Counted from the first letter of the stretch, positions 22,534 through 64,000 are shown. The stretch is DNA of 64,000 nucleotides from a virus (IMGVR_UViG_3300000651_000004:14596-78595); one strand, 5' to 3'. Notes: generated by a model from the sequence alone, not told the origin. Numbers and translations: made by a program.

Positions 22534-25017
22534 TTATGCAAAGGCCGGCAATTCCTCTGAACTTTTTACCGGTGATTTCTCTTTAATCATCTTGGCCAGC
22601 ACTGCCTGGGTCTGTGGCCGCTGGTAAGTCGGGGTGGCTATCTTAGGCAGCTGTCTCCGGGGTTGAGCTTGAGCGACTTCCTCGACTGGTTCTTTTTCTT
22701 CCGGTTCTTTTGCAGCGGCAGTCCTGGTTTCTTCGGGTTGTTCTTCAGTCTTAGCTACCGTAGCGCCAGGGGTGCCCTTCAAATCTTCCTGCACATATTT
22801 TTTGAAATTGTCCCATGGATAATCCAGCGGGTCCTGTTTGCGTTCCGGCGCGATGGTTGAATGTCCGACCACGTCATCAATCGTAAGACCGGGGTGCCGT
22901 TCCATAATCTGGGATACCAGCTTGGCTGCCCCGCGAACCTGGGCATCCGGCCAATCCTGTTTCCCGTCAACATGCTCCTGTTCGATGCCAAGGGTGACCT
23001 GGTTGGAGTAACGGCTATCGTCAATGTTTTTGCCGGCATGATAAGCGACATCATTTTCGGGAACGAAATGCTGCACTGTCCCATCCCTGTTCACATAATA
23101 GTGGGCGGACACATTGCCTTGAGTCAGGTTATTGATATCGCCTTCCCGAGTGCCGTCGCCTGAATGCATGACAATGGTGCGAATATCGCGAGTCTTACCT
23201 TCCGCTGTCTTGCTAAATGAGACTGAAGGAGTATCGACAGCCGCTTCCTGAGGCGGTTTATAACCAGCCGGTACTCCTTGTTCAGTTGAGGCCCACTGGT
23301 TACGACCCAAGGCTTCCTTGACCGCCACATTAGTCTCTTCCTGGGTAGGCCCCCCTGCAGGAGTTGGTCGGCGGCTGCCATTGTTTATGTGCTGTTCCCA
23401 GGTGGTGTCGCTGATGGTGCCAGGGTGATACCCTCTGATCTGCATCGATTCGCCATGAGGGCCGATAATTGAGAAACCCACCTTGGCTTTGCCGCCGGTA
23501 TTTAAATCGTGTGAAGTCTTGTAGGTCAGATCAATCGCGTTCCCAGTCCATTCGGCGGGGCCGGCATCGATTATTGGCACAGTCTTGGTGACCCCGCTTT
23601 CATTGCTTACGGCAACGTGGTAATCACCGCGCTTGATGGCTTCCCGGATATTGGGATCATTGGTGTAATCGCCGATCGTTTGTTTGATGACGTTAATGGG
23701 TAACGATGCGCCCTCGATATCTTTGTTGTGCGCGTTAAACCCGAAGGCAGTTTGAGGATTTTCATCCATGGCATCATAACTGCCTTTCTCATAATCCAGG
23801 CCCCAGGTGGTGCCGTTGCCAACCACCCGGTCATGATAATCAGGCGCTGGCGCTTCCTGCTCAGCCGGTTTTTGTGCCGGGGGTGGTGCGGCCTTGGCGG
23901 TTGTATCTTCCAGGGGTACCGGCTCAGGAACATTGTGCGGAACCATGTTTTCATCCGGCGCATGGTAGCTCCGCAACAGGTTTTCCATGTTGCTCTCTTC
24001 AGCCTTGTATTGCCCAATCAGGTTGGGGGCTTGAGGCGAATAGAGGCCGCGATCCACCTGGTTGTCAGTGGGCGCGGCTGTTGCACTTTTTAATGGTGCA
24101 AACGCGGCATCAAACCCTCCTTGAGTAGATTTGCTTAAAGCAGCAAAGGGGTCTGAAAGAAACGAAAGAGCGTCTGGCGCTTGTTCGTTCCCGCTTAATG
24201 GAACAATGGCTTCCGGACCTGCCTCGCCAACCAGGGCCACGGTGGGGCTGGTGACAATGCCGCCCTCCTGATAACGAGGAAGCCGGGAGACGAAAAGATT
24301 ATTTTCTAAATTGGCTTGCCAGTTGGCTCCGCTTTGTGGTTGGGCGGTTTGCAGCTGTTGTTGCCGACCGGCCGGCAGCGGCAAATTAGTTCCCGGTTGC
24401 TGACCTGGCTGCGGCGGGGGCGGTTGAACCGTGACATCCAACGGGCCCATGAGAGAGGGTGCGGTTGGAGTGCCGATTGGCGCACCTTCTCTATAGGCAA
24501 GACCTCCGGCTGGGGCGCTGATGGCTGTACCGGGAGCCTGCGGTTGCATCCCGTACATTTGGGCCGGAGGAACCCAGCCCCAGCTTCTCGGGTCAATTGT
24601 CTGCGGCAATTGCCCTGCCTGAGGCCCCTGATTCTTTTCCTGGGAAGGCCCCATGAACTCGTAATAAGTATTCGGCCCCTGGCCTGGTTGATCCCATTGC
24701 TGGATTGATTGCCAGTTGCTGGGATTAGTCAGGATGTTGAGCAGGTTCTGATTCTGAGGCGTATTAAGCTCCGAGAGATTAGGCGAAAAACCAGCGCCAA
24801 TCCCTGAGATCTCGCTTCCCGGCTGAGTTCCGATGTCCAGACCACCGGGGGGTACCCCTTGGTCACCAGCGCCGTAAGTAAGTGGACCACCCGGAGTTTC
24901 ACTTATGCCAAGACCACCAAACAGCGAGGAAAGATCCGGCCCTCCGATAATCTTGCGCTGATTGAACAGCTGTTGAAGATTCGTTAAAGAGAACTGGCTG
25001 TTGGCGGCGGCAGGCAT
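22534..25017 (-). CDS. Virion-associated peptidoglycan hydrolase (RlpA/DPBB-like plus Amidase_2)
   Basis: IDAGP...NAIDLT; IVMH..VSAHYYV..AYHAG..N..TLGIE..GHS.IAP.RK.DP; also YQEGGIVTSPTVALVGEAGPEAIVPL. Confidence 0.85.
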   Translation of the reverse strand: MPAAANSQFSLTNLQQLFNQRKIIGGPDLSSLFGGLGISETPGGPLTYGAGDQGVPPGGLDIGTQPGSEISGIGAGFSPNLSELNTPQNQNLLNILTNPSNWQSIQQWDQPGQGPNTYYEFMGPSQEKNQGPQAGQLPQTIDPRSWGWVPPAQMYGMQPQAPGTAISAPAGGLAYREGAPIGTPTAPSLMGPLDVTVQPPPPQPGQQPGTNLPLPAGRQQQLQTAQPQSGANWQANLENNLFVSRLPRYQEGGIVTSPTVALVGEAGPEAIVPLSGNEQAPDALSFLSDPFAALSKSTQGGFDAAFAPLKSATAAPTDNQVDRGLYSPQAPNLIGQYKAEESNMENLLRSYHAPDENMVPHNVPEPVPLEDTTAKAAPPPAQKPAEQEAPAPDYHDRVVGNGTTWGLDYEKGSYDAMDENPQTAFGFNAHNKDIEGASLPINVIKQTIGDYTNDPNIREAIKRGDYHVAVSNESGVTKTVPIIDAGPAEWTGNAIDLTYKTSHDLNTGGKAKVGFSIIGPHGESMQIRGYHPGTISDTTWEQHINNGSRRPTPAGGPTQEETNVAVKEALGRNQWASTEQGVPAGYKPPQEAAVDTPSVSFSKTAEGKTRDIRTIVMHSGDGTREGDINNLTQGNVSAHYYVNRDGTVQHFVPENDVAYHAGKNIDDSRYSNQVTLGIEQEHVDGKQDWPDAQVRGAAKLVSQIMERHPGLTIDDVVGHSTIAPERKQDPLDYPWDNFKKYVQEDLKGTPGATVAKTEEQPEETRTAAAKEPEEKEPVEEVAQAQPRRQLPKIATPTYQRPQTQAVLAKMIKEKSPVKSSEELPAFA

Positions 25018-28155: not shown

Positions 28156-28331
28156 CTTCGACCGGCTTTGGGTTTTGGGGCTTTCTTTTTCCCTGGATAT
28201 CCTCCCTTTGGTTTAGTGGCGAAATCGCGCAGCTGGCTTTTGCTCATCCCGGTCTGAGTCTTTTCCCCACGCTCAGCACGAGCATAATCGGCTCCCATAA
28301 ACCGCTGTTGTTTTGGTGTTTTAGCAGGCAT
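28152..28331 (-). CDS. 59-aa basic protein, DUF3008-like (not in the ORF track)
   Basis: MPAKTPKQQRFMGA...GMSKSQLRDFATK; overlap-coupled at both ends. Confidence 0.75.
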   Translation of the reverse strand: MPAKTPKQQRFMGADYARAERGEKTQTGMSKSQLRDFATKPKGGYPGKKKAPKPKAGRR

Positions 28332-28708
28332 CAGCAGAATTTCCTGAAAGAAGTGTTATCCCAGAAGACCCCAAAAGTTTGATTGGCAACGATTGCGTTG
28401 GCGGCCAGGGCAGCATTGCCAAGGGTAACGATCGGTTTAGCGCCCAGCCCGTTTACGTTAAGGGTCGGGCCGGCCAGGTTGGGATTGGTTGCGGTAATGA
28501 AAAGCACAACGCCAGCGTTAAGCGCGAAATTGCCGGCTACACTGACCGCGTAGGCCTGGTTATTGGTTGAATCGATCCCATAATAAGAGGTGCCTGCACC
28601 TGTTAACCCCGTGGGTCCGGGCTGGCCTTGAAAACCTTGCGGACCACCGGGGCTGACAAGCGCGCCCGATGGCACACTGGTTCCTGGAATTGCAACTGGA
28701 TTAGCCAT
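28331..28708 (-). CDS. Short fibre/tip protein with an N-terminal plug motif and a collagen stretch
   Basis: PGTSVPSGALVSPGG, a GXY run, then a TLNVNGLGAKPI tip domain. Confidence 0.75.
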   Translation of the reverse strand: MANPVAIPGTSVPSGALVSPGGPQGFQGQPGPTGLTGAGTSYYGIDSTNNQAYAVSVAGNFALNAGVVLFITATNPNLAGPTLNVNGLGAKPIVTLGNAALAANAIVANQTFGVFWDNTSFRKFC

Positions 28709-28973
28709 GAATACCGTCCCAATCGGTTTGCGCGGAGGCCATTGCGATATCCAGATTCATGGCGGCAGTCTCCAGCGGCCAGCCAAAGTTCCCGCCCCCT
28801 TGTTTGATCAGCCGATTCACATGGTACTGGTCGCTGACACCCCCGCGTAGAATGACGGCGGGATCGTTGACCGGGAAAATTTCATAGCTCACGCTGGGCG
28901 AAGGTGTGGCAGTGGCTCTTAACAAAGATCCATCACCAGCCTGGTCAATTTTCCAATCTAATTTTGTAGTCAT
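28701..28973 (-). CDS. Hypothetical protein, possible fibre chaperone
   Basis: 90 aa, directly after a collar-domain fibre gene. Confidence 0.6.
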   Translation of the reverse strand: MTTKLDWKIDQAGDGSLLRATATPSPSVSYEIFPVNDPAVILRGGVSDQYHVNRLIKQGGGNFGWPLETAAMNLDIAMASAQTDWDGIHG

Positions 28974-30067
28974 ATTTTGATTATTTTATTCGCAACCATA
29001 TAAGGCATCATGGTGTTATGGCCAGTCCCGCTACCGGCATTGGCGGTATTGGCAATTGATGCGCCATCGGTGGTGTTCGTAGAAGGGCCGCCGGAATTCG
29101 CCCACCCGCCATTGGTCTGGCTGGCATAGACCGTGTTGCCAGCTGGAATATTGGCCCCGTCTGACCCGCCGCTTGGAGCGCCAGTTTGCGTTGCCCCAGA
29201 AGTTGAATATTGACCCGCCCCTGGTTGTGAGCCTGTAGCGCCAACCGGGTTATAGTACGAATGCGTATGCCCGCCCAGCCCGTGCGCGTGATAAAAGCCG
29301 GCATTGATATTGTGATAGTGGTCTATGTAATGGGAGTGATTCCCCATCGTGTGGGTGTGAGCAACCCCGTGGCTGTGGACGGCTTCCTCCCCTACCGTTA
29401 AAGCATGATTCTCCTCGCCCCCAACTGCGGCCAGTGCCCGATTGGTGAGCCCAGCCCCCTGGCCGGCACCTATGGTGGCGCGGCCGCGCAGATCGGGCAC
29501 GTTAAAACTGTTTCCGCTCCCGCCGTACTTATACCCGATCACTGCAAACAAATTGCCCATGGCCCCGGCAGTCGGATAACTGGTCCCATCTGTCAGGACA
29601 AACCCGCTTGGCGCGGTGTCCCCGCCAAAATCGATGATCGCGCCGGTCGGGATAACGAACCCGACCAGGGCCGCCGCCAGGCTGTGACAGGCGTTGTCGC
29701 CCCCAACGTAATCGGTTGAGGCCCCGCTTAAAATCGCGAGCAACCCCGCCATGCTGGTGTTGGCCAGGGGAATTGTCGGCGGCGGCTGGGGATTAAGCAG
29801 GGTCAGCTGGTTACCGTTTTTAACTGAAACCTGTAAAATGCCAGGGTTGCCTGGGCCGCCCCCGGCCTGGTCCACGTAAATCATTTGCCCTGCCACTACC
29901 CAGGAAGCGTCGTTCAAGTTAACCACCACAGTTGACCCCACCTGGGGCACCGTGAACGAGCTTGCTGTCGTGTTAAAAGCGTTGATCCCCGTGCCTAATG
30001 GGCCGCCGGGGCTGATCTGGCTCCCTGCCGGTACGGTTGTTCCTGGGATTGGTTGGCTGGCTGGCAT
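28970..30067 (-). CDS. Tail fibre with phage collar domain and HxH metal-binding tip
   Basis: PTGAIIDFGG.TAPSGF..DG...FNVPDLRGR; several HxH motifs; GHNTMMPY..NKIIK. Confidence 0.9.
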   Translation of the reverse strand: MPASQPIPGTTVPAGSQISPGGPLGTGINAFNTTASSFTVPQVGSTVVVNLNDASWVVAGQMIYVDQAGGGPGNPGILQVSVKNGNQLTLLNPQPPPTIPLANTSMAGLLAILSGASTDYVGGDNACHSLAAALVGFVIPTGAIIDFGGDTAPSGFVLTDGTSYPTAGAMGNLFAVIGYKYGGSGNSFNVPDLRGRATIGAGQGAGLTNRALAAVGGEENHALTVGEEAVHSHGVAHTHTMGNHSHYIDHYHNINAGFYHAHGLGGHTHSYYNPVGATGSQPGAGQYSTSGATQTGAPSGGSDGANIPAGNTVYASQTNGGWANSGGPSTNTTDGASIANTANAGSGTGHNTMMPYMVANKIIKI

Positions 30068-30070
30068 AGG

Positions 30071-32353
30071 TTAAAAGAAGGTGAGTAGGGTGAGCTGGTT
30101 GCCAGTCTTGGCGGTACACTGCATGACACCCGGATTCCCCGGGCCGGCAGCATTCTGGACATAAACGAATTGTCCCGGCACCACCCAGGAAGCGTCCGCG
30201 AGTGTGACAACCGTTGTCTGTCCCAGTGTGGGCACCGTGAAAGGCGCGGTTGTTTGGTTAAAAGAATTTATCCCGGCGCTGCCGGTTGCGCCTGTCGGCC
30301 CGGTGGCACCGACCTGGCCGGTTTGACCGCCGGCACTAATCAAGCTGTTGGTATTGACCACTGTGCCTCCAACAGCCGAATTGAGTCCTCCAGGGTTGGT
30401 CAGGGTAACCGAGTTGCCGGTTTTAGAGGTTACCAGCATCGCGCCCCCGGCTCCGCTTGCCCCGGCTGTGTCGACCCAGACCATCTGCCCAGGCACGATC
30501 CAGCCAGCATCAATCACATTGACACTCGTTTGAGCTCCGGTTGCCGGAACTGTAAAAGACGCCGTAGTCCGAGTGTAAGCAGGCGAACCGGTTGGCCCTG
30601 AAGGACCAGTCGGCCCTTGAGTACCGCCTAACCCCGGAGCTCCCGCTGCGGTGACCATGCTGCCCGAGACTGCGACCGCTCCACCGGCTACAGCGCTTCC
30701 CGGCGGGTTAAGAAGAGTGACTAGGTTGCCGTTGATTGCGGTCACCTGAAATTGGCCTGCGCTGCCAGGGGCTGCCCCGGCCAACCAGACATATTGGTTT
30801 AGGGCCATCCAGCTACTGGAAGCCACCTGAGCATTGGAACTTGAGCCTGGTGCGGGGACTGTCCAGTTGGCAGTTAATGTGGTGTAAGCATTTGCCCCAG
30901 CCGGTCCCGTCGATCCGGTCGGCCCTTGGGCCCCCGTGGCACCAGTTGAACCTTGCGGCCCCGCCGGCCCTTGTGCGCCTTGCGGCCCGGTGGCGGTCAC
31001 CGTGGTGCCGCTTGCCGCAACCGAACCTTGGGCCTGGTTAACCGCGTAACCGGTATTCTGCAAGGTTAACTGGTTAGCTCCGGCATTGATCGCGGTGATC
31101 GACAGGTAACCAATCGGGCTGATAAAAACGAAATTGCCCAGGTTAAACTGGCTGGCTCCCCCAGCCGCCACGGTGGCAACCGCAGTCGACCCAACCGCCG
31201 GCATTGTGAAAGAGGCGGCTAAGGTGGTAAAAGAACTCGAGCCCCCTGGAGGGCCTTGAGGACCACTGGCTCCTTGCGGCCCAGCACTGCCAGCCGGCCC
31301 TTGGGCTCCGGTCGCTCCCGTGTTCCCGGTCGCGCCGGTCAAGCCTTGAGGCCCGACTGGTCCTTGAGGGCCGGTTGAACCTTGCGGCCCTGTGGCTCCA
31401 GCCGGCCCGACTGAACCGGTTGACCCCGTGGGCCCAACTGCGTTCACTGCCGCCCCGGCCGGAATGACTGTGCCAGGGCTCGCGTTCCCGGCCACGTTCA
31501 ACGGGGTGGCATGCACCTGGTTAGGGGTGTCGACCGTTTGAATGACGTAATACCCGGCCCCGGCAATGTAGAGATTGTTCCCGGCTGCCACCCCGACACT
31601 GGTGGAAAGAGGGATCACTACCGGAGTCGCCGCTGCCGGTACCGTAAAACCAGGGGCTTGAACAGTTGAAAAATAAGCGGCCCCCGGAGCGCCTTGCGGT
31701 CCAGGGTTGCCAAGCGCCCCGCCGCTGGTCACCGTCGCTCCACTGACCACAATCGTACCGGATGCCGCGTTGCCGTAAGCGCCGGTGTTGTCCACCTGGA
31801 CCGTGTTGATGTCGACAACACTCATCACCTTATAGGTGCCGGCATTGCCGATATAGATATACATCCCGGCGGTTATCCAGGCCGAGTTAACCACTTTGAG
31901 CTGGGCGTTACCGTTGACAGGGGGAATCGTAAAATTGGCGCTTGTGTTAGTAACCGCCGCCTGCCCCACCGGCCCTTGAGGACCAGCTGGCCCACTCGCG
32001 CCAACCGGCCCGGTCGGCCCCGCTGGCCCAACCGGCCCTTGCGGTCCTGTCGGTCCACCGGAGGGACCGATTGGCCCTTGCACTCCTTGCGGACCTTGCA
32101 ATCCTTGCGGACCAATCACGCCTTGCGGCCCAGCCGGCCCAGTTGCGCCAATCGGCCCCTGCGGTCCAGGTACACCGATAACGCCTTGCGGCCCTACCGG
32201 CCCAGTTGAACCGGTCTGCCCGATCGGGCCTTGCAACCCCGGAGGGCCGGCTGGTCCCTGTGGACCCGGAGGGCCGGTCGCATCGATCTCTACTTCAATC
32301 GGGCCACCGGGAGTGACATCGACATTGATGGAAGTTAAAATATCGGTTGCCAT
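30071..32353 (-). CDS. Collagen-like fibre protein with six repeated beta domains
   Basis: Long Gly-X-Y runs alternate with (F/W)T(V/I/M)P...GN.(L/V)TL repeats; the last repeat is truncated. Confidence 0.9.
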
Positions 32354-42078: not shown

Positions 42079-43161
42079 CTAGATCGTGTAAAACTCTCTG
42101 GTGTTGGAATAGATGAAAACGTGTCCGAAAGGGATGTCGATCGTCCAGGAGTTCTGCCCCTGGATGGTGGTCCCATCACTGGTGGTAATAGTGATCGGAT
42201 ATTGATCAGCTAGGCCGCCCTCATCCTTGATAAGCAACATGTTATTGGTCCAATGACTTGCATCGGCCAAAACCACTGAAACCGGGGAAGCGATATTGGG
42301 CGTATAAACCGCCACCATCTGTTCAATCCCGCTTAAAACGACCGGAGTTCGAGCAGTTGAAAGCCGGGTAAAAGCGAACCCCACCGGGCTCATCCAATCG
42401 ATTCCAGCTTCAGCTCCAGGGGAAACCGTCAATACCATCCCAGCCAGGGGGCCTACAGGAAGCCGGCGATTTATCACCCCGTCATAAACCATGGTGTCAC
42501 CCTTGGTGGTCAGCGGAGAGATTTCATTAATGGAAACCTTTAGAAGACTTGTATCCAGCCAACGAAATCCAGCGGTTGCCGTTGCATCAGAAATCGGCAC
42601 CTGGTTATCGGCATTGGCGATTACAGCAATATTCTGCTGCCCGTCAGAACCAATCAGTTGCCCTTTGCCGGTCAGAGGGGAAAGCGCAGTAAATGCTGCC
42701 GGTACAGTCGCCTGCCCAGTCCCGCCAAGATTGACGCCTAAGGGGCTGGTCAATTTCCAGGGCGGTCCTTGCGGCCCTTGCAACCCAGCCGGGGTAACCT
42801 GCTGGCCGCTTCCAATATTGGAACCGGGATCTAAATTGCCTGGGTAACCAAGATTGGTGAGCACCATCGTGCTCAAGGTGGAAGTGACGGCAACCTTGAA
42901 ATATCCAACTTCTCCGCTGACCCCGCCGATATAAACGGTTTGTCCTTGAGTCGCCCAGTCAGCCGGGTCGACTTGGACATTCACATTGGCCCCGACATCG
43001 GGCATCGTGAAGCCGGCTTCCGTAATTCCGAAAGCGTTTTCGCCGTCCACACCTTGAAATCCTTGCGGACCCTGCGGTCCCATCGGACCAGGGGGGCCTT
43101 GAGTGCCGCCAACCGGAGGACAATCAGGAGTACACGCGCAACCTAAATCAAGTAATGCCAT
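42079..43161 (-). CDS. Collagen-containing fibre protein with one complete beta repeat
   Basis: N-terminal CACTPDC, GXY runs, the FTMP...PGSNIGSGQQVTPAG repeat, SPLTxKG repeats, IKDEGG C-terminal domain. Confidence 0.8.
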   Translation of the reverse strand: MALLDLGCACTPDCPPVGGTQGPPGPMGPQGPQGFQGVDGENAFGITEAGFTMPDVGANVNVQVDPADWATQGQTVYIGGVSGEVGYFKVAVTSTLSTMVLTNLGYPGNLDPGSNIGSGQQVTPAGLQGPQGPPWKLTSPLGVNLGGTGQATVPAAFTALSPLTGKGQLIGSDGQQNIAVIANADNQVPISDATATAGFRWLDTSLLKVSINEISPLTTKGDTMVYDGVINRRLPVGPLAGMVLTVSPGAEAGIDWMSPVGFAFTRLSTARTPVVLSGIEQMVAVYTPNIASPVSVVLADASHWTNNMLLIKDEGGLADQYPITITTSDGTTIQGQNSWTIDIPFGHVFIYSNTREFYTI

Positions 43162-43162
43162 T

Positions 43163-43333
43163 TTAAGATTCCAACCATTTTTTGAGGTACTCGCCGTGAA
43201 CCATATCGAGCACACCCAGCAGTTCACTCACCGATAAATGATCATATTTGGGGTCGTTAATCAGCGTTCGCAGGTCATCAAGCAATCGAGTTGATGTTCC
43301 AAATTCAGGAGGAGTAAGAATTGATTCATCCAT
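43163..43333 (-). CDS. 56-aa hypothetical protein (not in the ORF track)
   Basis: MDESILTPPEF...KKWLES exactly fills the gap. Confidence 0.6.
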   Translation of the reverse strand: MDESILTPPEFGTSTRLLDDLRTLINDPKYDHLSVSELLGVLDMVHGEYLKKWLES

Positions 43334-58603: not shown

Positions 58604-58786
58604 ATGCCAAAACCACTAACCGGCGGACCTCTAACCGGGGGCGCGGAAGCGCCCGGCCCAAAGCCAAACATGCGCCCCCAGAAGCGTCGGCGCGCACGCA
58701 TTCCCTTACCCGCTAAAAGCGCTGTCGGGCGCAAAATCGATGCTCAAGCCCGCCTGCGACAGGCCACATCCGGAATCAAAAAATGA
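58604..58786 (+). CDS. 60-aa basic peptide
   Basis: GGAG upstream; the stop is ATGA-coupled to the next gene. Confidence 0.55.
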   Translation: MPKPLTGGPLTGGAEAPGPKPNMRPQKRRRARIPLPAKSAVGRKIDAQARLRQATSGIKK

Positions 58787-59904
58787 GCGAGCCTCCCAGC
58801 CCGATTGCCATCTGCCCAAGACAAAACGATCCCAATTCGCTCTGGGTGGCTTGCGTAGATGGTTCGGTCTGGATCTTATCGCCCAATATCGATTCGGTCG
58901 GATCTCCTTACCCTTTTCAAGATACAGGCCAAAATTGGCTTTGGGAAAAACTGCCGCCGATCCCCCAACTCAACGGGGTAACTTATAATCCAGTTGCCAT
59001 CTCTCCCAGCCAGACTGATCCCAATTCGGTCTGGGTAGCTTGTTCAGACGGTTCAGTCTGGACTCTGTCGCCCAATATCGATCCAGCTCCTTATCCCTAT
59101 CGAGATACAGGCCAAGCCTGGAGCTGGAAAAAATTGCCTACCCTTCCAGGGGCAGTAGCCCCGCCAGGGGGAATCGGACCTCCAGGGCCACAAGGGCCGC
59201 AAGGACCAGCTGGTGCTCCCGGAGTACCGGGACCAATAGGCCCACCTGGGCATTCTTCAGATGATGCACCTTATAAATGGTCGACAGCGACCGCAGCGGC
59301 TAACCCTGGCAGCGGCGAAATTGCTGGTAATAACGCCACTATTTCCTCTGTCACCCATATTTATGCCAATGCTTTTGATCAAACCGGAGCAGGAGTTTTT
59401 GGTCTAAGGCAGCTTGTTGATTCAAGACCATTGTTCCTGTACGAAGCCGCTGCTGCCAATCAAAGTGTCAAATTTAAGGTTGTCGGTACGCCGGTCAATA
59501 ATGGACCAGACATTTGGTTTGATATCACGGTCACCTTAGACACCCTCAACGGATTCAGCCCTAAAAATAACGATCCAGTTCAGCTTTTCCTTCCAGTACA
59601 AGGCACAGCAGGGCCACAAGGGCCACCTGGGCCACAAGGACCGGCAGGACCGCAAGGGCCTCCGGGAACTTCCGGGTCAGCAGTCAAATTTGTCTGGGGT
59701 GAAATTCCAACCGGGGCTATCAACGGTACAAACCAAGTCTTTACCACTGCCAGCGCCTACAGCCCAGGCTTGCTTGCCGTTTTCTTAAACGGAATGCGGC
59801 AACGACACCCCGCCGATTATTCGGAGACAGGAAGCCAAACCTTCCAGTTTGTCGCTGCTCCGCTGTCTGGAGACAGTATCTCCATCGATTACACCCAACC
59901 CTAA
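58783..59904 (+). CDS. Collagen-containing virion decoration / fibre protein with an N-terminal tandem repeat
   Basis: Two ~55-aa DPNSxWVACxDGSVW repeats, GXY runs, and a C-terminal VFLNG..Q..DY beta domain. Confidence 0.8.
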
Positions 59905-59909
59905 ACCAT

Positions 59910-60968
59910 ATGGCCAGCACCCAAATTCGCGGCACCACCCAGATTCAAGTGGGAACAATCGCGGATGCTCAAGTTCAAGCAGCAGCCGCGATTCAAACCA
60001 GCAAACTCGCCGATGGCGCGAAATTCATTAAGTCAGACGGCACCGTGCCGATGCTGGCGACACTGCAGATGGGTACCGGCACACCAGCCGCACCTGCCGG
60101 AACTCAGGCAATCAGTCAGGTTACCAATCCCGTAAACCCGCAGGACGTCGCCACCAAAAGCTACGTTGATACCGCAGTGGCTAATATCGCCACTTCAAGC
60201 ACAACCGTGCTGGCCACTACGATTGGTGCAAATATCACCTTGAGCGGTACGCAGACTCTAGACGGTATCGCGCTTTCTGTCGGCAACAAGGTGCTGGTCA
60301 AGGATCAGACCTCCCAAGCCACCAACGGTATTTACCAGGTGCAATCAGCTGCCTGGACACGTGACCCGTCGATGACCAACTGGAATCAGGTGCCTGGAAT
60401 GATCATCTCAGTCGAACAAGGCACCACCATGCACGACACGGTGTGGTTGTCCACAGCTGATCCCGGCGGCACCATGGGGACTACTGCAATCACGTTCACC
60501 CAAATGCCGGGGCCAAGCGACATCATTCCCGGCATGGGTCTGACCCGATCGGGGCAAACACTTAATGTAGCCTGCCCCGACGCCTCGCTCACCCTGGCTA
60601 CCGGAGCAGTCAACGTTAAAATCGATCCGGCGCGTGCCATCACCCTGGTGGCTGCTGGTATCGGGGTCAACGCCGATGGCACTACCCTGGTCATCACCAG
60701 CAATGTCTTAGGCGTCAAACCTGGGCTATACATGCCGATCATGGGCACCGGCAACCGAGTGACACGAGAAGTTGTCGGCGGTGCATTCCCCGGCACAGCT
60801 TACACCCTGGCCCACGCGCCCAACCCGGTGGGATGCGAAGAAGTTTTCCTAAACGGGCTGCTACTTCAATCAGGTGCCGGGAACGATTATACAATCTCAG
60901 GGACCGCCATCACCATGCTCACCACGACCTCCAGTGGCGACAAACTACTGGCCAACTATTGGTATTAA
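59910..60968 (+). CDS. Fibre / decoration protein
   Basis: QDVATKSYVD stalk, NITLSGTQTLDG..VLVKDQ..NGIY, C-terminal VFLNG..NDYTISG. Confidence 0.8.
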   Translation: MASTQIRGTTQIQVGTIADAQVQAAAAIQTSKLADGAKFIKSDGTVPMLATLQMGTGTPAAPAGTQAISQVTNPVNPQDVATKSYVDTAVANIATSSTTVLATTIGANITLSGTQTLDGIALSVGNKVLVKDQTSQATNGIYQVQSAAWTRDPSMTNWNQVPGMIISVEQGTTMHDTVWLSTADPGGTMGTTAITFTQMPGPSDIIPGMGLTRSGQTLNVACPDASLTLATGAVNVKIDPARAITLVAAGIGVNADGTTLVITSNVLGVKPGLYMPIMGTGNRVTREVVGGAFPGTAYTLAHAPNPVGCEEVFLNGLLLQSGAGNDYTISGTAITMLTTTSSGDKLLANYWY

Positions 60969-60969
60969 A

Positions 60970-62043
60970 ATGCCCCAGACCCAGGTCAGAGGTTCCCAGA
61001 TCCTTAATAACACAGTCCAACGGCAGGACTTGGATACCTCGACCGTTGGGCAGGCTGTTGTCACTAAACTGGTCCAGGGCAGTAATGTCACTTTCAGCTC
61101 GACCGGAGCTGATGCAGGAACCGGCGATGTCACCATTAACGTAGCCAGTGTTCAAGGGCCAACCGGTCCCGCTGGTCCAGCCGGGACACCGGCCTGGACC
61201 ACAGCCAGTGCCGGGTTCACGATTCCGGCAATCGGCTCGACGGTGGTGGTGACCGTGGCGGACCCAACCTGGATGACTGTGGGCGAATTTGTCTATGTAG
61301 CTGGAGCCAGCGGCTCCGGACAAGCCGGTACATTGCAAATTACAAATATCACCGGCAACCAGGTAACCTTGCTCAATGCCGGCGGTGCCTCCGGAGCACT
61401 AATCAGCTCGGATGCCGGGAACTACGCCAAACTGGGTTCAGATAATCTGGTCTTTGTGCCGAACGCACTGGCTTCAACAAGCGCGCGTGGACTTTTAAGC
61501 CCACTCTCAGGTGCAGCTACAGATTTTGTGGGCGGTGACAATACAACCCATTCCTTGGTAACCGCACTTCTAGGATATCTCGTACCAACCGGAGCAGTCA
61601 TCGATTACGCAGGAGCAACTGCCCCAACAGGATTTCTTCTCGCCCAAGGTCAAGCGGTCAGTCGAACAACCTACAGCGGACTTTACACAGCGCTTGGAGG
61701 AGCCGGTTCGCCTTGGGGCCAAGGTGATGGCTCGACCACGTTCAATGTGCCGGATCTGCGCAGCCGTGTGCCAGTTGGCGCAGGTCAAGGAACCGGGCTT
61801 TCAAACTACGCTTTGGCAGCGACTGGAGGTGAGGAAACTCATAGACTTGTACAAGCCGAAATGCCAAGCCACATGCATTATGCAATGTCCAACCCTGTTG
61901 GTTACGCAGGCGGATCATATGGAGCGCATACAAGCTGCGCCAGTACAGGTAATAGCGTTGTTCCATGTACTAGTGCCGGTAGCGACGGAGCGCACAACAA
62001 CATCCAGCCTTACCTGGTGATGAACAAAATCATCAAGACATGA
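60970..62043 (+). CDS. Tail fibre with a beta repeat and collar domain
   Basis: ATG at 60970; FTIP..GNQVTLLN repeat; PTGAVIDYAG..GDGSTTFNVPDLR. Confidence 0.88.
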   Translation: MPQTQVRGSQILNNTVQRQDLDTSTVGQAVVTKLVQGSNVTFSSTGADAGTGDVTINVASVQGPTGPAGPAGTPAWTTASAGFTIPAIGSTVVVTVADPTWMTVGEFVYVAGASGSGQAGTLQITNITGNQVTLLNAGGASGALISSDAGNYAKLGSDNLVFVPNALASTSARGLLSPLSGAATDFVGGDNTTHSLVTALLGYLVPTGAVIDYAGATAPTGFLLAQGQAVSRTTYSGLYTALGGAGSPWGQGDGSTTFNVPDLRSRVPVGAGQGTGLSNYALAATGGEETHRLVQAEMPSHMHYAMSNPVGYAGGSYGAHTSCASTGNSVVPCTSAGSDGAHNNIQPYLVMNKIIKT

Positions 62044-63236
62044 GCAACGGCGTTGAAGTTTTATCTGGCGTTCCCGGCACCGTCGTGCCGAGCGGAGCGC
62101 TCATTACGCCAGGAGGCCAACAGGGGCCAGGTGGGCAACCTGCTTACACAGTTAACACAGCCGCCTTCACCGTTCCCGCAGCCGGTTCAACCGTCGTGAT
62201 AAACGTGAACAACGCCAGCTGGGCGGCTCAAGGAGAATGGGTCTACGTGGCCGGCGCAGACGGCGCAGGCGGGGCGGCAGTCCTACAGATCACCAACATT
62301 TCTGGCAACCAGCTTACCTTGCTGAATCCCGGTCCCGGAACAATAACGCCACCTCTAGCCAGTGTTACGGGAGCTGGGCTCTTAAGTCAGATCAGCGGCA
62401 GAACCACTGATTACGTAGGAGGCGACAATCTCTGCCATCCTTTGAGCATGGTGAGCGGCTTTATTGCCAAGAGTGCCGCCTACAGTGTGCTGCCTGCCGA
62501 TTCTGGCAAATACTTCCTCTGCACCGGAACAGGATGGACCTTGACCCTACCTATGGCGGCGGCGGGTCTTTACTATTATATTCGAAACGACCAGGGATTG
62601 ATAGCGGCTGGTACGATCACGATTGCCGCGCAAGGCGGTCAGACCATCGACGGTGCAACTTCGATCAATCTGCTTCCGGGTCAGGACTGCACGATTATCA
62701 CCGATGGTTCGAATTATCGAACATTCGGATTGAAGCGCGAGGTGATTGTCGGAACCATCGACGGAGCAGGAGGACAAACCGTTTTACTTCCCTCCGGTTA
62801 TCGGATTTTCGAGTTAGAATTTACAGGGATTCAAACAACTGGTGGCGGCGATCAATGGATCTGGTTCCAAGTGAGCAGTAATGGCGGCACTACATGGATC
62901 GCAGCAAATTACTATAATGGGTTCCTTTACAACACCAGCGGAACAGCAGCAGCGTATCTAAATCAGAATAATCAAACGCGGTCCTATCTGGTTCCTATGA
63001 CCGCCAATACGGCTCAGCAATATGCAATGGCGAAGCTTATACTCTATCCGGGCAAGACAGGTGAGAATCCCAATTGGCTTACGGATTGCGGATATTGGTA
63101 CGTAGGTGGAGCGATAACACAAAAATATAACATCTGGGGATTTCTGGATCAGCAAGTGTTGCTAAACGCACTCCAATACTATCCAAACGCTGGCAGTATC
63201 ACCAATATGCACGTCACCGTGAAAGGAAAAGTATAG
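62040..63236 (+). CDS. Tail fibre with a plug motif, beta repeat and tip domain
   Basis: PGTVVPSGALITPGG, the FTVP repeat, and a TLTLP..TIDG..TDGSN module. Confidence 0.85.
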   Translation: MSNGVEVLSGVPGTVVPSGALITPGGQQGPGGQPAYTVNTAAFTVPAAGSTVVINVNNASWAAQGEWVYVAGADGAGGAAVLQITNISGNQLTLLNPGPGTITPPLASVTGAGLLSQISGRTTDYVGGDNLCHPLSMVSGFIAKSAAYSVLPADSGKYFLCTGTGWTLTLPMAAAGLYYYIRNDQGLIAAGTITIAAQGGQTIDGATSINLLPGQDCTIITDGSNYRTFGLKREVIVGTIDGAGGQTVLLPSGYRIFELEFTGIQTTGGGDQWIWFQVSSNGGTTWIAANYYNGFLYNTSGTAAAYLNQNNQTRSYLVPMTANTAQQYAMAKLILYPGKTGENPNWLTDCGYWYVGGAITQKYNIWGFLDQQVLLNALQYYPNAGSITNMHVTVKGKV

Positions 63237-63237
63237 G

Positions 63238-64000
63238 ATGCCTGCTCCAGCTCTCACAGCCGCTGCCGGAACAATTATCCCTGTCAGCAGTTTGATCACG
63301 CCCGGTGGGCAGATAGGCTACACCGGACCCATGGGTGACGGCCAGCCGGTGGGCACAGTCTACGCTTTCACCAGTGTGACCCCGCCTGCCGGATCAATGA
63401 TCGCCGATGGCAGCGCAATCAGCCGCACGACTTATCCCGCGCTCTTTGCAGTAATCGGCACCACTTACGGAGCAGGGGACGGATCGACCACATTCAACAT
63501 TCCTGATCTGCGTTCAAAGTTTATTCTCGGCAACGGCCAAGGGACAGGACTCTCAAATCGCGTCATCGCCACAACCGGCGGCGAAGAAAACCATGTCCTC
63601 TCAGTAGCAGAACTAGCTAACCATGCTCATGGGTTGGGTGGTCACACCCACGGGATGGACCACTATCATAATATTGGTGCAGGTGGCTGGCATGGTCACG
63701 GGTTAGGCGGTCACACGCATGGCTGCGGTCAGCCTAGCTCGATCAATTACGGCACCACTAACCCCGGCTATGCGTTTTATCAATGCGCCGGAAGCAATAC
63801 CGGCGGCCCATCCGGAGGCTCGGACGGAGCCAATACCGGCGCATGGAACACGGTCTATGCTAGCCAGACCAGCGGGAGCTGGGCGAACACAGGCGGTCCC
63901 AGCGGCGGCAGTGATGCGGCCGGCAGCAGCTCTGGCCACAACACGATGCCGCCTTACTTGGTTTTGGTTTACATGATCAAAGTGGCGGCAGGCGGTGGGC
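63238..64000 (+). CDS. Tail fibre with a collar domain, 3'-truncated by the window edge (not in the ORF track)
   Basis: MPAPALTAAAGTIIPVSSLITPGG..., GDGSTTFNIPDLR, HxH motifs, GHNTMPPY; open to the window end. Confidence 0.88.
   Translation, partial: MPAPALTAAAGTIIPVSSLITPGGQIGYTGPMGDGQPVGTVYAFTSVTPPAGSMIADGSAISRTTYPALFAVIGTTYGAGDGSTTFNIPDLRSKFILGNGQGTGLSNRVIATTGGEENHVLSVAELANHAHGLGGHTHGMDHYHNIGAGGWHGHGLGGHTHGCGQPSSINYGTTNPGYAFYQCAGSNTGGPSGGSDGANTGAWNTVYASQTSGSWANTGGPSGGSDAAGSSSGHNTMPPYLVLVYMIKVAAGGG

Follow-up and report, generated by a model that had tools for sequence, protein, structure and literature searches.

Our study reports on a split-domain arrangement in the tail-fibre genes of an uncultured phage from soil, in which a collagen-like fibre is encoded as separate proteins. 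In the window (the whole 64,000-nucleotide stretch of DNA that was analysed) these proteins are built from a module consisting of a domain of ~60 aa (D), a segment of 14-15 aa (P) and collagen-like GXY triplets. One long fibre protein ends with a D that no P follows, and the protein encoded directly downstream begins with a P. Taken together, the motifs, the predicted fold, the recurrence of the split, a gene-order rule and collinear single-chain relatives make completion of the domain in trans, by a strand of the neighbouring protein, the best reading of the split D/P pair, and one that we hold to be probable. From these observations we infer binding between the chains, its geometry and the pairing of plugs (N-terminal P segments) with sockets (open D barrels).

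The host range of tailed phages is set by their receptor-binding fibres. To our knowledge, the mounting of several tips on one virion is understood for a few cultured models only (the KP32 branching domain, T4, CBA120 and DT57C). The arrangement described here has a grammar that can be read from sequence, in which an open barrel is followed by a gene starting with the missing strand, and this grammar predicts both the partners and their order.

A tip-less stalk followed by plug-first genes

The genes of the first chain and their segments are as follows.

30071..32353, minus strand: f760, a tip-less fibre stalk of 760 aa, from its ORF and repeats
31718-31759, 31433-31474, 30986-31027 and 30641-30682, minus strand: P1-P4 of f760, of the same segment type as P5
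30326..30367, minus strand: P5 of f760 (14 aa), which closes D5 in the same chain
30074..30265, minus strand: D6 of f760, the putative open barrel or 'socket' (aa 697-760; D-HMM E 3.6e-28)
30068..30073, minus strand: f760/g365 junction, a TAA stop and one codon (CCT), then the ATG of g365
28970..30067, minus strand: g365, with plug, two GXY triplets, D7, linker and Collar
30002..30046, minus strand: N-terminal plug of g365, PGTTVPAGSQISPGG, aa 8-22
29792..29980, minus strand: D7 of g365, the putative second socket, with no P and collagen after it in the same chain
28701..28973, minus strand: g90, a small ORF called between g365 and g125
28331..28708, minus strand: g125, with plug (28643-28687), collagen and a small C-terminal knob, no D

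The preliminary description of this DNA had reported five complete repeats in f760 and a sixth without its closing segment, and the ORFs and motifs are as it described. An N-terminal anchor-like segment and collagen are followed by five complete D-P-collagen modules and by a sixth D at the end of the protein (D domains at aa 133-190, 228-283, 374-434, 489-550, 592-654 and 697-760). D1-D5 are each succeeded by a P segment and then by GXY triplets, whereas f760 terminates 3 aa past the D-HMM match of D6. The collagen repeats match PF01391 (E 3.9e-27), and no receptor-binding domain was found in f760 with Pfam.

The junction with g365 reads TTT TAA CCT ATG; as only the stop and a single codon lie between the two genes, g365 is in the same frame, and no Shine-Dalgarno sequence is visible at the junction on inspection. 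The N-terminus of g365, MPASQPIPGTTVPAGSQISPGG, leads into the two GXY triplets, a D, a linker of the pattern PLAxxxxGLL..DYVGGDN and the Collar (PF07484), a receptor-binding tip resembling T4 gp12. The claim that this gene opens with exactly the segment missing from f760 is borne out by the in-frame junction and by the homology of its plug, given below. This layout could also be read as one ORF cut by the TAA, through stop-codon readthrough or recent breakage of the gene: only TAA CCT separates the two in-frame parts, the fused product would be a seamless seventh repeat, and genes B and C of the relative L095 are likewise in frame. However, both the 'TFF' terminus of f760 and the beginning of g365 are retained in relatives at 65-88% identity, each belonging there to a protein called on its own; elsewhere (L064, c357/c398, L003, L011 and L013) the two genes at a junction differ in frame or overlap, and an ATG stands directly before every plug. 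We reject readthrough or breakage as highly improbable.

In g125, MANPVAIPGTSVPSGALVSPGG at the N-terminus is followed by collagen and the small C-terminal domain; from this layout we propose that g125 may act as a chain terminator. The plug-first proteins have no N-terminal anchor other than the plug. The small ORF g90, which has no family match in Pfam or PHROG, is possibly a fibre assembly factor. In the relative L027, a space of 229 nt between the end of the g365-like match and the plug-first gene could hold a small ORF.

A second putative chain in the same genome

The genes of the second chain lie on the opposite strand.

60970..62043, plus strand: c357, first member of the chain, with a different N-terminal anchor, collagen, D (61192-61377), a 'SDAGN' module and Collar
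62040..63236, plus strand: c398, with plug (62073-62117), D (62142-62327), linker and another receptor-binding domain
63238..64000, plus strand: 5' part of a gene with plug (63265-63309), GXY triplets, Collar, linker and a '...ADTGW' receptor-binding domain, no D

The last of these spans the ends of the circularly assembled contig, and its true length is 636 aa. The start of c398 overlaps the stop of c357 (ATGA). The second cluster had been described as repeating the order of the first, and this stands for c398, with plug and D, and for the gene at 63238, with a plug only. The D of c357, however, is not followed by P and collagen; the next sequence, '...SGALISSDAGN...', belongs to another fibre module, so the status of this D as a socket is less certain. 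Homologs of c357 that end right after D occur in L064 (132 aa) and L068 (131 aa).

Collar matches (PF07484) were obtained for g365 (E 4.6e-14), c357 (7.4e-16) and the gene at 63238 (2e-21), and the Collar tip matches the T4 short tail fibre in the PDB (1ocy_A, E 8.7e-5). A further protein, c373, also carries a collagen match (PF01391, E 6.9e-8), and PHROG matches to tail fibres were found with phrog_6320 (2e-52), phrog_819 (9e-46) and phrog_8763 (1e-15).

Predicted fold of the D-P module

AlphaFold2 monomer models were made of the f760 repeat R5 (from a 21-sequence alignment) and of g365 residues 1-144. The R5 model (mean pLDDT 85) is a six-stranded beta-barrel with five strands in D. The P segment (pLDDT ~90) has strands at model residues 74-75 and 80-82, and is predicted to be the closing strand of the barrel; its membership of the domain core, which the preliminary description had set as a test of its proposal, is thus what the model indicates. 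Residues 1-85, P included, superpose in VIA-align on complete six-stranded barrels (9n71_B, Z 10.2 and rmsd 2.2 A over 74 residues; 8jov_1, Z 8.9), and these solved barrels extend over the P segment. Other matches are to EF-Tu domain-II-like, F1 and HerA barrels, and the likeness of the R5 barrel is to phage decoration barrels and EF-Tu domain-II-like barrels. The fold was identified by VIA-align; a Foldseek search of the PDB with the model found nothing at E <= 0.001, sequence searches of the PDB that used two repeats of f760 or a D-P profile returned nothing significant except collagen peptides (9n71_B at E 1.6), and there is no Pfam model for the D domain. By homology to the modelled repeat, D6 is predicted to have five strands and to lack the closing one. 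A different parse of the repeat as P-collagen-D, in which P would be a mere collagen cap and nothing would be missing, was dropped because in the AlphaFold2 model P belongs to the barrel of the D before it.

In the g365 model, where no P follows D, the match to the same templates is much weaker (9n71_B Z 5.0, 8jov_1 Z 4.5). Here the protein's own plug is packed onto its own D7 (plug pLDDT 78-84, D7 pLDDT 84-92), with plug strands at residues 11-13 and 17-19 and barrel-like matches that cover residues 8-95. Proteins with a short spacer between plug and D may thus be completed within their own chain, and the spacer is just 7-8 residues in g365 and c398. In these two proteins the plug might therefore close its own barrel, in the same chain or by a swap within the homotrimer, making them circular permutations of D-P and leaving only the pairs of D-ended and plug-only proteins to join. 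We think this unlikely, and distinctly so. It would leave g365 without attachment to f760 and D6 open, the monomer model gave the plug no other partner, and the occurrence of a plug-first gene after a socket (the rule given below) would go unexplained. Moreover, in homologous plug-first proteins the plug and D are 7-8 collagen triplets apart (L021 gene 2 and P0043) or D is absent altogether, which strengthens the argument against simple circular permutation made in the preliminary description.

Plugs are homologous to internal P segments

Among the genome's 364 ORFs, the best non-self matches of an HMM trained solely on 21 internal P segments are the plugs of g125 (E 1e-6), c398 (2e-6) and g365 (4e-4). 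From the sequence comparison, this match between plugs and internal P segments is not chance, and with it g125, in which no D is present, is recognised as a plug-only protein, as had been noted. The plug of the gene at 63238 was missed by this HMM in the search of the 364 ORFs. An HMM built from N-terminal plugs recovers all four plugs of the window, the same four being part of its training set. Across the wider collection, plug-first genes were called by a conserved N-terminal motif of 15-22 aa on 39 distinct genes, two of which are false calls on internal P segments.

A gene-order rule links free D domains to plugs

The preliminary description had suggested a survey of socket-to-plug order in related phages, and here its expectation held. 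Downstream sequence is available for 29 plug-first genes. Where the plug-first gene has a free D, the next gene is also plug-first in 8/8 cases; where it has none, this is so in 0/21 (Fisher p = 2e-7). In a second sample, loci were picked by the plug motif alone, through a DNA pattern scan, with the upstream ORF complete in the locus, and 14/15 plug-first genes directly follow a gene whose last D is free. In the sample selected by D, every apparent exception proved to have a plug-first gene outside the regular expression. Part of the rule could be inherited synteny among related phages.

The split recurs in related fibres

Proteins that end with D occur in at least five fibre lineages. Those ending 0-4 aa past D, with varied N-terminal anchors, are P0121, P0122, P0131, P0134, P0148, P0180 and P0195, together with the 132-aa protein of L064, gene B of L076/L095 (406 aa) and a 152-aa protein of L081; the f760 orthologs P0121 and P0122 have an identical protein end. 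A plug-first gene begins 2-6 nt past the D-ended gene in the window, L064, L095 and L081, and the contig of P0121, in which the plug-first gene P0002 probably adjoins it, would be a fifth such phage. The full order of three genes (D-ended, plug and socket, plug only) is found again in L095 and L081. As in KP32-type systems, the gene for the secondary receptor-binding protein adjoins that for the primary one on its downstream side, with gaps of -4 to +31 nt.

Single-chain relatives are collinear over the cut (P0142 residues 655-844, and P0199), and their internal P is of the N-terminal-plug type. P0127 joins in a single chain a stalk like f760 and a Collar tip like that of g365, and the tip of g365 aligns to the P0127 C-terminus. 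In public metagenomes the family of D domains amounts to 2,453 protein clusters. No match to the region was obtained by blastn among 50,697 phage records, and the single metagenome scan, dominated by the Collar C-terminal pattern, returned few close relatives. The mean identity of free D domains (55%) against those completed in their own chain (36%), and of N-terminal plugs (54%) against internal P segments (40%), is confounded by protein sampling and was left out of the evidence.

A D without P after it is also found in other settings: a second D follows directly in L004 and L020, and 142 census cases were classed as 'other'. D may be stable without P. In L068 the 131-aa D-ended protein is encoded by the last gene of its cluster, with no plug-first gene adjoining, and the 68-kb contig holds three free D domains against two plug-first genes. 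The many settings of D without P fit a reading in which D is autonomous and P with GXY forms a trimerisation or docking cap, making surface contact with the preceding fibre or the tail hub, while the gene boundaries are recombination points of fibre genes. As P precedes GXY within fibres as well as at N-termini, its function could lie with the collagen segment, and docking peptides of this kind are established in KP32-type phages (PMC6872550, PMC13352976). We nevertheless judge a docking peptide without barrel completion unlikely: P is placed within the barrel by AlphaFold2 with high confidence and is spanned by the solved barrels that match, and attachment to a hub does not predict the rule of 8/8 against 0/21, nor that the ends of tip-less stalks coincide exactly with the last strand of D.

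Proposed joint and its implications

Completion of the barrel by the neighbouring protein thus remains our preferred reading, since a downstream protein that begins with the strand that the upstream barrel lacks would most likely click together with it. At several sites the boundary between genes coincides exactly with that between D and P, leaving the upstream barrel without its own closing strand. The three N-terminal P strands of a downstream trimer would enter the upstream trimer at its three open barrels, and this inter-chain joint would reproduce the D-P-collagen junction found elsewhere within a single chain. In the first assembly the tip-less stalk f760 would receive g365 with its Collar tip, which would in turn receive g125 with its small knob; in the second, c357 would be followed by c398 and the 636-aa protein. 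Fibres of this build would be chained or branched and would bear several receptor-binding tips. The short distances between the genes (1-6 nt), or the overlap of stop with start codon, suggest translational coupling and roughly equal amounts of the proteins. Inter-protein strand complementation, as first put forward in the preliminary description, is favoured by the predicted core strand, the recurrent split, the gene order and the collinear relatives, and is weakened by the g365 model, by the many other successors of D and by the D-ended protein of L068.

If the binding is true, it explains why metagenomic phages have stalk genes that lack a tip and tip genes that lack an anchor, allows better annotation of multi-tip fibres, and provides a compact joint (~15 aa and ~60 aa) for modular fibre engineering. 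More speculatively, and with considerable doubt, D/P might be a general, interchangeable and non-covalent snap joint, every open barrel accepting every N-terminal plug. Uncultured phage lineages in their thousands might then use it to make fibres that are daisy-chained and many-tipped, exchanging the tips by recombination or even between co-infecting phages, and the joint might serve as a joining tag for trimeric fibres and for plug-and-play retargeting of phages of laboratory bacteria.

Comparison with known systems

Donor-strand complementation or exchange is known from chaperone-usher pili (Fim, Pap, Caf1), TasA and archaeal fibres, and is cited in PMC12357932. The analogy with pili drawn in the preliminary description holds at the level of function: an incomplete beta fold would be completed by the N-terminal strand of the next subunit, subunits with plug and socket would extend the chain, and a socket-less subunit would end it. 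It does not extend to the fold, which here is a predicted six-stranded barrel of EF-Tu domain-II type, whereas the pilin is Ig-like and lacks its seventh strand. The partners here would be trimers of distinct receptor-binding proteins in place of a homopolymer, and no exchange step is implied. A dedicated chaperone in the periplasm and an outer-membrane usher would not be expected for a virion assembled in the cytoplasm.

The absence of any description of this system, asserted earlier, is upheld for the literature searched, in which none was found, but related docking-peptide systems are known. In KP32, K11 and KP34, podophages of Klebsiella, a branching domain of RBP1 receives a conserved N-terminal docking peptide of RBP2 (PMC6872550, PMC13352976). 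As is proposed for the phage described here, an anchored primary fibre or spike adjoins a secondary receptor-binding protein for which a short conserved N-terminal peptide is the sole attachment element, and the tips are modular and exchangeable. The receiving module would differ, being a T4 gp10-like branching domain in those phages and a predicted small beta-barrel between collagen stretches here; no Pfam or PHROG match to a T4 gp10-like branching domain was found, and gp10 is absent from the barrels listed by the fold searches with the D-P model, the modelled parts being one repeat and the N-terminal region of g365. Since the plug is homologous to P segments that are predicted to complete D in a single chain elsewhere, the joint here would be a split domain, unlike that of the KP32-type phages. 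Putative chains of three proteins are likewise a difference, and the joint here is predicted from sequence and modelling.

In the F-ENA endospore appendages of Bacillus, beta-barrel necks are interlocked by N-terminal hook peptides, and collagen-like proteins are present as F-Anchor and F-BclA (PMC12357932). As in the joint that we propose, collagen-like proteins are attached through an N-terminal peptide in the beta-barrel of the preceding subunit, but F-ENA belongs to the DUF4183 family, is a bacterial spore structure and has a joint that is not split from a continuous domain. A Pfam scan of nine fibre proteins (E <= 0.01) found Collagen, Collar and a sub-threshold Av_adeno_fibre on c352, and DUF4183 was absent.

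The long tail fibre of T4 is a chain of gp34-gp35-gp36-gp37. Branched lateral tail fibres composed of LtfA and LtfB are carried by the T5-like phages DT57C and DT571/2 (PMC4728585, PMC10713586). These fibres, like those proposed here, consist of several separately encoded proteins with different receptor-binding tips; no sequence or fold relationship to them was found, and their joints are not described as split domains. The single-chain collagen-like fibres with knob domains (PHROG 819, 6320 and 5073; Pfam Collagen and Collar) have the same D, P, collagen and Collar modules and are unsplit in P0127, P0142 and P0199; in these, every D has a P of its own to close it, and stalk and tip share one polypeptide.

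Two fibre gene clusters in a self-closing phage genome

The phage contig of 78.5 kb closes on itself through an 84-nt overlap of its ends, which sets the genome size at about 78.5 kb; the window covers 64 kb of it. The first fibre cluster (28331-32353, minus strand) comprises four genes:

30071-32353, minus: f760, a short segment at the N-terminus, an extended collagen region (Pfam Collagen, E 4e-27) and six repeats of the fibre domain D
28970-30067, minus: g365, the closing segment P, two GXY triplets, a seventh D (D7), a linker ('PLAxxxxGLL..DYVGGDN') and a Collar domain akin to the tip of T4 gp12
28701-28973, minus: g90, a 90-aa ORF between g365 and g125
28331-28708, minus: g125, P, collagen and a small C-terminal domain

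In f760, D spans about 60 aa with the motif 'FTVP ... GNxLTLxN'. Copies D1 to D5 are each followed by a linker of 8-10 aa, a 14-aa P ('GTxVxxGxxVxxGG') and GXY triplets, in that order, and D6 by TFF only and then the stop codon. The junction between f760 and g365 reads TTT TAA CCT ATG, with g365 in frame, and a hypothetical readthrough of the two genes would yield a seamless seventh repeat. The motifs and the layout of sockets (D without its own P) and plugs (P at a protein N-terminus) given for both clusters in the preliminary description were thus confirmed, f760 ending in a D6 without P and the next gene starting with P. No Pfam or PHROG match was found for g90, which may be a fibre assembly factor; in a related locus (L027), a 229-nt space lies where g90 sits in the window.

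The second cluster, from 60970 onwards on the plus strand, has the same gene order:

60970-62043, plus: c357, an N-terminus unlike that of f760, collagen, a D without a following P plus collagen, and a Collar domain
62040-63236, plus: c398, P, D, the same linker and another receptor-binding domain
63238-64000 of the window and G000:C1:1-1233 at the contig start, plus: a 636-aa protein spanning the contig ends, with a plug, Collar, a linker and a second receptor-binding domain ('...ADTGW'), and no D

Behind the D of c357 comes '...SGALISSDAGN...', a sequence that might occupy the P site.

The plug as a closing strand in structural models

With a profile HMM built from internal P segments only, the plugs at the N-termini of g125, c398 and g365 are found (E 1e-6 to 4e-4), and the resemblance between plug and P is therefore one of homology rather than of by-eye pattern-matching. 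A PDB sequence and profile search found no solved structure among the sequence relatives of D-P, and one complete repeat (f760 R5) was modelled with AlphaFold2 from a 21-sequence alignment. The model has a mean pLDDT of 85, with five strands in D and strand residues in P (pLDDT about 90). Foldseek returned weak matches only; a structural search against representatives aligned model residues 1-85, P included, to complete six-stranded barrels. The best of these, at Z 10.2 and an rmsd of 2.2 A across 74 residues, was a decoration domain from the tail tube of phage Mystique (9n71_B), followed by a portal-tail component of phage GP4 (8jov_1, Z 8.9) and, at lower rank, by EF-Tu domain-II-like barrels and the N-terminal barrels of F1 and HerA. 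Since the match to complete barrels includes P, P is in the model the closing strand and D alone an open five-stranded barrel; the earlier premise that the final segment belongs to the domain core holds at the level of this prediction.

A second AlphaFold2 model covers g365 residues 1-144. Its N-terminal plug forms two short strands (pLDDT 78-84) and is joined by a spacer (53) to D7 (84-92), past which the linker is modelled as coil and helix (64-79). Structural matches span residues 8-95, and the original templates align at residues 27-96 only (Z 4.5-5.0). As the barrel concerned is g365's own D7, the model keeps self-completion plausible, in which the plug of a short-spacer protein closes the barrel of its own chain. 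Against this alternative stand homologous plug-first proteins whose spacers run to 7-8 collagen triplets or which contain no D. AlphaFold2 places the plug on any open barrel at hand, so that plug and barrel are shown to be complementary; closure within or between chains would both fit the models.

The split domain recurs in related fibres

D belongs to a large family that has no Pfam model: a profile search retrieved 2,453 protein clusters at E <= 1e-3, of which 711 also pass E <= 1e-10. We took a census of what follows D in 212 D-bearing proteins holding 574 copies: P plus collagen in 360, a linker to a receptor-binding domain in 58, other sequence in 142, the next D directly in seven and the protein end in seven. 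Proteins ending in D recur, and their N-terminal anchors are unrelated. P0121 and P0122, orthologs of f760, terminate in 'TFF' exactly as it does; P0131, P0134, P0148, P0180 and P0195 likewise stop right after D, and further examples measure 132 aa (L064), 152 aa (L081) and 406 aa (L076/L095). The three-gene order of a D-ended protein, a plug with a free D, and a plug only is found again in L095 and L081.

Unsplit relatives were also identified: P0142 and P0199 carry D-P-collagen-D-linker on a single chain, and in P0199 the P within the chain belongs to the type seen in N-terminal plugs. In P0127, an f760-type N-terminus, five repeats and a g365-like Collar tip lie on one polypeptide, which by sequence comparison marks f760 as a tipless stalk to which g365 is the tip.

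Gene order follows the free D

The plug HMM called 39 distinct plug-first genes across the loci examined. Where such a gene carries a D not closed by its own P, the next gene is plug-first in 8/8 cases (gaps of -4 to +31 nt, and one of 261 nt in the window, with g90 in between); where it has no free D, the next gene is plug-first in 0/21, two false calls on internal P having been removed (Fisher p = 2e-7, for loci that come from related soil phages and counts that are not phylogenetically independent). A separate sample of 23 matches to a plug DNA motif contained 18 N-terminal plugs, two internal P segments after D and three hits in an unrelated protein; 14 of its 15 plug-first genes with a complete upstream ORF lie directly behind a gene with a free final D. 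Where a fibre gene closes every D itself, the gene after it lacks a plug (e.g. L057 5508-6992). This rule is predicted if each open barrel pairs one-to-one with the plug of the next protein, and not if all plugs share a single site.

D-ended genes with DNA context are followed 2-6 nt downstream by a plug-first gene, with one clear exception. This is a 131-aa protein with its C-terminus just past D (…GNQITLQTP; L068 1829-2224, minus strand, about 32.0 kb on G001:C1); it is the last gene of its cluster and has no adjoining plug-first gene. The 68-kb contig concerned (estimated 92% complete) holds three free D domains versus two plug-first genes. Tandem D domains with no P or collagen between them (D-D, D-D-D) occur in L004 10813-11733 and L020 1536-1712; open D may thus be stable, sockets may outnumber plugs, or tandem barrels may be closed in some other way.

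An identical stretch of nine bases, TAACCTATG, links the upstream fibre gene with the plug-first gene in the window (30065-30073) and in the unrelated L012 (5011-5019), and other such junctions measure 2-6 nt or overlap. Because stop and start codons nearly touch or overlap, with no Shine-Dalgarno sequence visible at the junctions inspected, the arrangement suggests coupled translation by termination-reinitiation.

A model for fibre joints and its relation to known systems

Collagen-bearing fibre proteins are trimeric, so that each node would consist of three D barrels, each closed by one P strand, past which the three chains would merge and continue as another triple helix. Where a split occurs, the downstream trimer would supply one N-terminal plug to each open barrel of the upstream trimer and so close all three; an upstream chain that stops at D, as in f760, would give an end-to-end joint, and one that runs on into its own receptor-binding domain, as in g365 and c398, a branch. 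The preliminary description had proposed such complementation between proteins. Fold prediction and a strict gene grammar give good grounds for the split-domain mechanism, and the binding itself we infer. We judge strand completion between chains to be a reasonably probable basis for the fibre joint, and regard it as quite likely that, more simply, the plug attaches each protein to the preceding fibre.

The branching domain and docking peptide of KP32-type phages are experimentally validated (PMC6872550, PMC13352976) and resemble D and plug in function, but the receiving fold predicted here is a different barrel. DT57C LtfA and LtfB likewise offer a functional parallel to the multi-protein fibres of the window. 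F-ENA fibres use hook peptides with collagen-like partners (PMC12357932), again a functional likeness, whereas the window's fibre proteins have no DUF4183 match. Pilus donor-strand complementation is similar in function, but the D-P barrel is not an Ig-like pilin fold. The D/P joint belongs to none of these systems, and a full-text literature search on strand donation or complementation in tail fibres yielded no description of it, in agreement with the preliminary description. We propose that this split-domain mechanism represents a new form of multi-protein fibre assembly.

Other fibre-like and virion genes

Two fibre-like proteins of 373 and 352 aa are encoded upstream of c357 (58783-60968, plus). 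They share a similar C-terminal '...FLNG...DY...' domain, and PHROG matches of the 352-aa protein are to families annotated for head decoration and for tail fibre; a pair of the same type precedes the 131-aa D-ended protein in L068. Distant from both clusters, a further fibre-like protein (42079-43227, minus) has collagen, one D with its own P (PGSNIGSGQQVTPAG) and a domain of about 230 aa; its true start is likely an internal ATG (MALLDLG...). An 827-aa virion-type protein (22534-25017, minus) has a C-terminal part that by eye resembles an N-acetylmuramoyl-L-alanine amidase motif (…AHYYV…AYHAG…).
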